From positions 18,368-82,367 of the forward strand of contig DASWKF010000085.1 in assembly GCA_036396795.1 (NCBI GenBank): 64,000 nucleotides of DNA, in the 5' to 3' direction. Both the position numbers and the translations under genes were made by a program. Position 1 is the first letter of the stretch, and each line of letters opens with the position of its first letter. The notes under the pieces were generated by a model. It had not been told where the DNA came from. It made no database searches and saw nothing but the letters and a program-made list of their open reading frames with translations. The stretch is from Gammaproteobacteria bacterium. Lineage in GTDB: Bacteria; Pseudomonadota; Gammaproteobacteria; Steroidobacterales; Rariloculaceae. Shown piece after piece: positions 31,431 through 31,742 of this stretch.

Positions 31431-31742
31431 GGGCCCGTAGCTCAGTTGGTTAGAGCAGGGGACTCATCTATTCAAGGTGCCTCCGCGTCGAAAGACCCGG
31501 AGTGGACGGGATGAATTCAGGGAAACCGTAGCGGCTGAGCCGGCAACCCTGAGCCAAGCCGGCGGTACACCGCCGGACGGTGCAGAGACTACCTGAGAGC
31601 TTCAGTGCTCTTAATGACAGGCTTAGAGCGTCCCGCACCCGAGCAGCCCGTGATTGTGGGTGAAGAGATAGTCCGCGCCCCCGGAAACGGCGGGAACCAG
31701 CGAATCCCTTGGTCGTAGGTTCGAGTCCTACCGGGCCCACCA
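31431..31742 (+). tRNA. ileX: intron-containing tRNA with CAU anticodon, most likely tRNA-Ile2 (lysidine-modified); exons 31431-31467 and 31703-31742
   Basis: The joined exons give a canonical cloverleaf: GGGCCCG TA GCTC AGTTGGTTA GAGC A GGGGA CTCATAA TCCCT TGGTC GTAGG TTCGAGT CCTAC CGGGCCC A CCA. G1-C72 excludes an initiator. C4-G69 and C5-G68 match the remembered TilS determinants of E. coli ileX and differ from elongator tRNA-Met. Confidence 0.85.
31468..31702 (+). ncRNA. group I self-splicing intron (IC3-like) in the tRNA anticodon loop, no ORF
   Basis: Core elements: P GAATTCAGGGAAACC (31513-27), Q AACCCTGAGCC (31545-55), R GTGCAGAGACTAC (31580-92), S AAGAGATAGTCC (31663-74). The guide GTG (31477-79) pairs with exon CAU. 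The terminal G is at 31702. GAAA-capped hairpins occupy the P2 and P9 positions. Confidence 0.85.

Follow-up and report, generated by a model that had tools for sequence, protein, structure and literature searches.

The window, as we call the whole 64-kb stretch of DNA that was analyzed, contains directly 3′ of rpoD a split tRNA gene that is very probably an ortholog of E. coli ileX carrying a 235-nt self-splicing group I intron. The gene holds a real group I intron. A preliminary description of the window had placed such an intron within a tRNA(CAU) gene right after rpoD, and our Rfam scan bore this out, with RF00028 aligning to positions 31455-31694 over model positions 1-253 of 253 (61.1 bits, E 4.9e-13; gathering score, 50 bits). 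RF00028 was also the sole Rfam family above its gathering score in the 64-kb window.

Exons and splice junction

The split tRNA(CAU) gene occupies window positions 31431-31742 (+ strand), with the intron inserted after anticodon base 36, between U36 and A37. Its 37-nt 5′ exon (31431-31467, +) comprises the acceptor stem, the D-arm, the 5′ strand of the anticodon stem, and a terminal CUCAU (CTCAT in the DNA), in which U31467 is the last exon base, U(-1). The 235-nt group I intron (31468-31702, +), recognized by its RF00028 match and by covariation in 74 homologs, is followed by a 40-nt 3′ exon (31703-31742, +) that supplies AA, the 3′ strand of the anticodon stem, the variable loop, the T-arm, the acceptor stem, and an encoded ACCA. 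The split gene had been expected to escape gene finders or to be called as two fragments, and ARAGORN indeed detected zero tRNAs in the unspliced 64-kb window; removal of 31468-31702 in silico yielded a perfect 77-nt tRNA(cat) cloverleaf in the same program, so that the joined exons scored as a tRNA, as had been anticipated.

The junction itself was fixed by empty-site alleles. In a metagenomic contig (locus L131) whose RpoD is 75% identical to that of the window, an uninterrupted tRNA lies 11 nt 3′ of rpoD, scores 74.5 bits against RF00005 (Rfam tRNA), and is identical to the spliced product of the window at 76/77 positions. A second locus (L123; RpoD 80% identity) likewise carries the gene without interruption, its anticodon arm matching that of the window product. 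Given these two alleles, 31467|31703, which reads CUCAU|c...g|AA, is the sole junction that fits. When run with its intron option, ARAGORN misplaced the intron and called a tRNA-Arg(ccg), a solution that we rejected for the U(-1)/omega-G junction backed by the empty-site allele.

tRNA identity and gene neighborhood

We assign the window tRNA as tRNA-Ile2, the AUA decoder orthologous to E. coli ileX, because of (i) its similarity to E. coli tRNAs, (ii) its synteny, and (iii) two base pairs of its acceptor stem. The best E. coli matches of the spliced product are all annotated as tRNA-Ile (84-86% full-length identity); the aligned E. coli tRNA-Ile has the anticodon CAT, and it differs from the window product mostly in stems, where pairing is kept. 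The gene order in E. coli is dnaG-rpoD-mug-tRNA-Ile, and that in the window is yqeY, dnaG (27666-29420), rpoD (29472-31343; domains by Pfam), a terminator, the split tRNA, and a DUF423 gene (31807-32217), with dnaG placed as at the E. coli locus. Within the acceptor stem of the spliced product (GGGCCCG/CGGGCCC), pairs 4-69 and 5-68 are both C-G, and we take C4-G69 and C5-G68 to be TilS determinants that mark tRNA-Ile2 rather than tRNA-Met/fMet. The CAU anticodon of tRNA-Ile2 is converted to lysidine-AU, which reads AUA; ATA codons occur in dnaG (two), rpoD (one), and yqeY (one). Besides the split gene, the 64-kb window contains no second tRNA detectable with ARAGORN.

An intrinsic terminator of rpoD (31362-31402, +), found in a terminator scan as a 16-bp hairpin (31362-31396) followed by a T-run, stands between rpoD and the split tRNA gene. 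Further, a putative extended -10 element read from the sequence, TGcTACCAT (31412-31420, +), lies 11 nt 5′ of the tRNA, and a -10-like box is found just 5′ of the tRNA in most of 19 relatives (e.g., TACCAT, TAGAAT, and GATAAT). The recurrence of this box suggests that the split gene has its own promoter 3′ of the rpoD terminator, although a sigma-70 consensus scan 5′ of the split tRNA returned no full promoter site. On the other side of the gene, directly 3′ of the tRNA CCA, lies a GC-rich hairpin without a T-run (GTCCGC-TGCGGC-GCGGAC, 31748-31765), which may signal processing or termination before the DUF423 gene. In the closest genome relatives (L002 and L107), the split tRNA lies 2.7-3.4 kb 3′ of rpoD, compared with 88 nt in the window, so DNA between the two genes has been gained or lost in the lineage.

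Architecture of the intron

The exon and intron bounds, the four core elements, the internal guide GTG (31477-79), and the omega-G (G31702) that the preliminary description had given were all exact when compared with the sequence. The core elements are P, GAATTCAGGGAAACC (31513-27); Q, AACCCTGAGCC (31545-55); R, GTGCAGAGACTAC (31580-92); and S, AAGAGATAGTCC (31663-74). P1 (31465-31479, +) pairs CAUCU with AGGUG, the guide sequence (31475-31479), across the loop AUUCA, and it contains the U31467.G31477 wobble pair at the 5′ splice site; its four counted pairs (C-G, A-U, U.G, and C-G) are unchanged in 74/74 introns. P2 (31481-31502, +) carries a GAAA tetraloop (31490-31493), and double compensatory changes were observed in the family at 9/9 of its pairs, with one C.C mismatch in the stem of the window copy.

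The 5′ strand of P3 (31507-31513, +; CGGGAUG) pairs with CGUCCCG at 31629-31635, forming seven pairs that are 99.6% paired across the 74 introns, three of them with double changes. P4 and P5 (31517-31552, +) consist of UCAGGG/CCCUGA around J4/5 (AAA), P5 (31526-31543), and J5/4 (CAA), and the P4 helix is unchanged in the family except for a G-C/G-U switch at one pair. In the adjoining segment (31553-31581, +), P6 (GCC/GGU) supports P6a (31559-31576), in which 7/7 pairs covary and the UACA loop is kept throughout the family. P7, the G-binding helix, is formed by G(A)GACUA in R (31585-31591, +) and UAGUCC in S (31669-31674), and it is unchanged in 74/74 introns.

An extra hairpin, P7.1 (31592-31621, +), follows the 5′ strand of P7. 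It is built from CCUG/CAGG and AGAGC/GCUCU with a hexaloop, UUCAGU (CCTGAGAGC-TTCAGT-GCTCTTAATGACAGG in the DNA), and it has a conserved 3′ bulge, UAAUGA (31612-31617); 9/9 of its pairs covary, and they are ~99% paired in the 74 introns. This hairpin had been described as P8-like; since it follows the 5′ strand of P7 and precedes the 3′ strand of P3, it is instead P7.1, and the true P8 lies at 31636-31662 (+), where CACCC/GGGUG is topped by a distal stem and 4/5 pairs covary. At the 3′ end (31675-31701, +), P9.0 (GCG, 31675-77; AGC, 31699-701) encloses P9 (31678-31693), which, as proposed for P2 and P9 alike, is capped by GAAA (31684-31687). The P9.0 pairs covary (3/3; 97.7% paired), as do those of P9, with a G.A as the third P9.0 pair in the window copy. 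The last intron base, G31702 (+), lies directly 3′ of P9.0 and is a G in 74/74 introns, and the covariation of P9.0 independently sets it as the omega-G.

No endonuclease ORF was found in the 235-nt intron, in agreement with the earlier statement that a homing endonuclease is absent: the mechanical ORFs that overlap the intron extend well beyond its ends or fall mostly outside it, and they have no Pfam match. The intron thus lacks the intron-encoded endonuclease ORF that marks mobile group I introns with a homing endonuclease. Minimum free energy folding of the intron gave z = -1.68, a modest value that is expected because the ribozyme is pseudoknotted; the fold recovered P2, P6a, P7.1, P8, and P9, but it cannot represent the P3/P7 pseudoknot and so says little on its own.

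Comparative support for the structure

We aligned 74 introns of the window type and counted base pairs for the homology-derived structure. Of all cells, 94.6% were paired, compared with 85.3% in the shuffled controls and 32-46% in controls with slid partners, and 41 pairs had changes on both sides, a number reached in 0/500 shuffles. Compensatory changes were found in P2, P3, P6a, P7.1, P8, P9.0, and P9, while P1, P4, P6, and P7 were essentially unchanged, the last three with full pairing. The P3-P8 core, including the P3/P7 pseudoknot, thereby has comparative support from the 74 homologs.

When 18 loci (17 of them from representative genomes) were scanned, 15 lay above the RF00028 gathering score. 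The P7.1-bearing tRNA-Ile2 introns scored 51-83 bits (most ≥57), as compared with 53 for an Azoarcus-like intron (L065), while the introns of L074, L094, and L119 did not reach the gathering score; annotation at the Rfam threshold therefore misses some members. Close to the L074 intron, which is an Azoarcus-type tRNA-Ile2 intron from a Sterolibacterium MAG, lies an unrelated Polynucleobacter-1 sRNA (RF01718; 523-666, 94.3 bits).

A mutual-information scan for tertiary covariation, which covered tetraloops and their receptors as well as L6a with P7.1, recovered helix pairs for the most part and no base-level tertiary signal; it also gave a one-column register correction in outer P9. The UACA of L6a (31566-31569) and the UAAUGA bulge of P7.1 (31612-31617) are near-invariant across 70 closely related introns, and in L004, L079, and L031, P6a is remodeled together with P7.1. 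The sequences hint at a P6a-P7.1 tertiary contact.

Distribution and inheritance

Genomes, one per species, were scanned with a pattern consisting of CTCAT, a gap, AATTCNNNGAAACC, a second gap, and GAGCCAAG; the resulting intron counts are biased by the pattern itself, and the totals are lower bounds. At least 120 loci in species-representative genomes matched, mostly in Gammaproteobacteria and often 3′ of rpoD, which overturns the preliminary impression that a gammaproteobacterial copy is highly unusual. On the same strand, rpoD lies upstream at no fewer than 44 intron loci. Of the matches listed (at least 120), most come from Steroidobacteraceae, Woeseiaceae, Lysobacter, Rhodanobacter, and Dyella, and 105 yielded a split tRNA(CAU) gene in full, the introns measuring 202-321 nt. 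Within the Gammaproteobacteria, the carrier groups among the matches listed are Steroidobacteraceae, Woeseiaceae, Lysobacterales, Arenicellales, Acidiferrobacterales, and Granulosicoccaceae, and the cultured carriers are Lysobacter daejeonensis, Luteimonas aestuarii, Rhodanobacter fulvus, Rhodanobacter ginsengisoli, and three Dyella species; the remaining carriers listed belong to Burkholderiales, Rhodocyclales, Bacteroidota, and a few further phyla.

The P7.1 insertion is present in ~96/105 complete genes among the matches listed (about 90%), whereas Azoarcus-like introns (202-224 nt) account for ~8/105. Judged by these counts, it is the P7.1-bearing form, not the Azoarcus form, that dominates the tRNA-Ile2 intron family. 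In five loci (L113, L004, L079, L020, and L038), the intron core bears P7.1 but the 3′ tail is Azoarcus-like (…CACAAACCUG); the L113 intron has an Azoarcus-like 5′ end as well, and all five look like links between the two forms. Several Burkholderiales loci, like L113, have a P7.1 core joined to Azoarcus-like ends, and the intermediates in L113, L004, and Burkholderiales argue for a single family of tRNA-Ile2 introns. Possible, although we hold it with considerable doubt, is a broader reading in which (i) the P7.1-bearing form would be the majority, and perhaps the ancestral, tRNA-Ile2 intron architecture, (ii) the 205-nt Azoarcus ribozyme would be a stripped-down minority derivative, and (iii) the P7.1 3′ bulge, U(U)AAU(N)A, and the P6a loop, U(A/G)CA, would form a tertiary contact new for tRNA introns. 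Were the P7.1 form ancestral, the family would offer a natural series, with L113 and L004 as intermediates, for the gain or loss of a peripheral stabilizer of a ribozyme.

The nearest relatives of the window are gammaproteobacterial MAGs with RpoD identities of 86% nearly full-length (L122) and 90.6% over 331 aa (L002). Presence of the intron near the window lineage is patchy: it is found at 6/80 metagenomic loci with the most similar rpoD, many others being intronless at the same place, and the genes of L123, L131, and L132 (RpoD 75-80% identity) are intronless with nearly identical exons. Such patchiness, together with the occurrence of the same intron family in Burkholderiales, Bacteroidota, and other phyla, would suit, in place of long residence, a recent horizontal arrival that reverse splicing or recombination still carries from one tRNA-Ile2 gene to another. 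We nevertheless consider a recent arrival unlikely for an intron that has no homing endonuclease, that resembles its host in GC content (62.6% in the intron vs 64.5% in the window), and whose distance tracks RpoD distance among carriers (Mantel r = 0.57, 0/2000 permutations). Moreover, since the nearest intron among the matches listed is only 89% identical to the window copy, no recent donor is visible. The Mantel correlation and the host-like GC content fit mainly vertical descent, and within carrier lineages the intron seems to have been inherited mainly vertically with its locus.

At another locus (L158, ~5900-6440; metagenome contig Ga0316193_10000309), an intact intronless tRNA(CAT) lies 80 nt 3′ of rpoD, and after it comes a second tRNA(CAT) that bears the intron together with extra insertions in the D-arm region and in the T-loop (~75 nt in the latter). 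This second copy may be a decaying duplicate or the product of nested insertions.

Predicted splicing and intactness

We infer splicing of the window intron from its anatomy, from the biochemistry of Azoarcus pre-tRNA-Ile, in which an intron of 205 nt, likewise inserted at this site, self-splices in vitro (PMC13168695), and from general group I chemistry. The gene would be transcribed, probably from its own promoter just 3′ of the rpoD terminator, and the intron would then fold into P1-P9 with the extra P7.1 hairpin. The exon end, CAU, would pair with the guide GGUG to form the U.G wobble, and a free guanosine bound in P7 is predicted to attack after U31467. P9.0 would next place the terminal G31702 in the same P7 pocket, allowing the freed 5′ exon to attack after G31702 and to join the exons into the 77-nt tRNA. 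An anticodon loop suited to TilS and IleRS would exist only after splicing, with lysidine presumably being formed then. AUA decoding requires splicing if the genome has no other tRNA-Ile2 gene.

Because the insertion site would force splicing to precede lysidine formation, and because many lineages retain the intron in an essential, single-copy tRNA gene (PMC8450103), intron removal might be imagined to depend on a host factor or to be regulated, gating the supply of tRNA-Ile2 and AUA decoding instead of being a neutral passenger event; P7.1 with its conserved bulge, and loop L6a, likewise conserved, are conceivable contact sites. We judge this improbable, as nothing in our data suggests regulation, a conserved neighboring factor was not found, and the Azoarcus homolog splices efficiently alone (PMC13168695).

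The self-splicing reading further presupposes an intact intron. The other 73 introns define 115 columns with ≥95% conservation, and the window copy deviates at 0 of them; because all of these conserved columns are matched, it appears functional rather than decayed. Its sole two blemishes are the C.C in P2 and the G.A at the third pair of P9.0, which are tolerated variations, though not proven neutral. That the locus is a decayed, non-splicing relic, i.e., a tRNA pseudogene with AUA read by another gene or other means, is highly improbable: the two small helix defects, the precedent of decaying intron-bearing copies such as the disrupted one beside an intact intronless gene in L158, and a view of the genome limited to 64 kb would allow it, but it is opposed by the unbroken match at the conserved columns, by exons that form a perfect cloverleaf nearly identical to a functional-looking intronless allele, by a window without any other tRNA, and by a position 3′ of rpoD that is the conserved one. 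The window intron thus looks intact and functional.

Significance

Default tRNA finders miss the split gene, and the genome would consequently seem to be without an AUA decoder; tRNAscan-SE was not designed with introns of this kind in mind. We recommend annotation of the locus as a split tRNA-Ile2. The window provides a further lineage whose essential, single-function tRNA would rely on self-splicing of its RNA. The intron itself is a routine annotation catch, its class being common in this branch of bacteria. A more useful by-product is that introns of the class to which Azoarcus gave its fame occur widely in Gammaproteobacteria, usually directly 3′ of rpoD and mostly with P7.1, a hairpin missing from the model ribozyme. 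This distribution is of possible interest to groups working on ribozyme structure and evolution; it alters no concept.

Comparison with known introns

The class of the window intron has been known since 1992. With an insertion site at 36|37, a CAU anticodon, the Ile2 isotype, U(-1), and an omega-G, the window intron can be placed in the catalogued Ile2.5Ug class. A survey that reported 5292 split tRNA genes in ~80,000 genomes counts Ile2.5Ug among the four classical types of intron in bacterial tRNAs (Williams 2020, bioRxiv 10.1101/2020.01.27.920355). Genomes with "missing" Ile2 genes due to such introns, with Acidovorax and Burkholderia named, are noted in the tRNAscan-SE 2.0 paper (PMC8450103). 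In the literature searched, we found no specific description of P7.1-bearing tRNA-Ile2 introns from Gammaproteobacteria (Xanthomonadales-like), which does not prove that none exists.

The Azoarcus intron (205-nt sequence from the Williams 2020 supplement) shares with the window intron (i) the host gene and the exact site after U36 of CAU; (ii) the U(-1).G wobble, the GUG guide, the omega-G, and the lack of an ORF; (iii) GAAA-capped P2 and P9, P9.0, and the P7 strands GAGACUA/UAGUCC; and (iv) the core blocks AAUUCNNNGAAACC and GAGCCAAG. The CAU/GUG P1 that the preliminary description had likened to that of Azoarcus was confirmed in the sequence, as was a length difference of a few tens of nucleotides (235 vs 205 nt, i.e., 30 nt longer), and the two introns are 58% identical over 183 alignable positions. 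The main length difference is a 36-nt block between P7 and the 3′ strand of P3, consisting of P7.1 and a joiner, which is present in the window only; the elements of the Azoarcus intron are P2-P9 and P9.0, with P7.1 not among them (PMC13168695). The likeness to the small IC3 introns of the Azoarcus type that had been drawn earlier thus holds for the core, whereas the P7.1 insertion departs from it. Further differences are that the window intron starts with C and has the guide GGUG, whereas the Azoarcus guide is UGUG; that canonical 11-nt receptor sequences are found in P5/P8 of Azoarcus, but not in P5/P8 of the window; and that the 3′ tails differ.

The consensus structure that Williams gives for bacterial tRNA introns inserted at other sites already contains P7.1/P7.2 hairpins, so the P7.1 element itself is not new. 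Four of the Williams seed introns, namely Pam37.Asn.4Ug, Dba165.Lys.2Ug, Mba55.Phe.2Ug, and Mga42.Leu.1Ug, share with the window intron the hairpin between P7 and the 3′ strand of P3 with its A-rich 3′ side (..AAUAA..), a P3 end of (G/A)UG followed by AAUU, an AGCG(U/C)CC 3′ strand of P3, and the S block GAGAUAGUCC; GCAGAGACUA is a further match in Dba165 and Pam37. Unlike the window intron, the P7.1-bearing seed introns interrupt other tRNAs at other anticodon-loop positions, and some possess P7.2 or additional hairpins at the 5′ side. In pairwise scoring against the representative introns of Williams, the window intron matched Pam37 best (44.4, vs 32.2 for Azoarcus); such differences are too small to set it apart from the Azoarcus lineage, and they are not a phylogeny.

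The IC3 introns of cyanobacterial and plastid tRNA-Leu(UAA) and of alphaproteobacterial tRNA-Arg(CCU) are, like the window intron, small, ORF-less, and inserted in the anticodon loop, and they have the same core blocks; unlike it, they occupy the Leu.3Ug and Arg.5Ug sites, lack P7.1, and have a longer P9 region. By its core sequence, the window intron is IC3-like: P2 is present and insertions of P2.1 or P5abc size are absent, but it has a covarying P7.1, which a plain IC3 intron does not. Because peripheral elements, P7.1 among them, help to define the subgroups of group I introns (PMC3984707), we refer to the window intron as IC3-like with P7.1 rather than as plain IC3.
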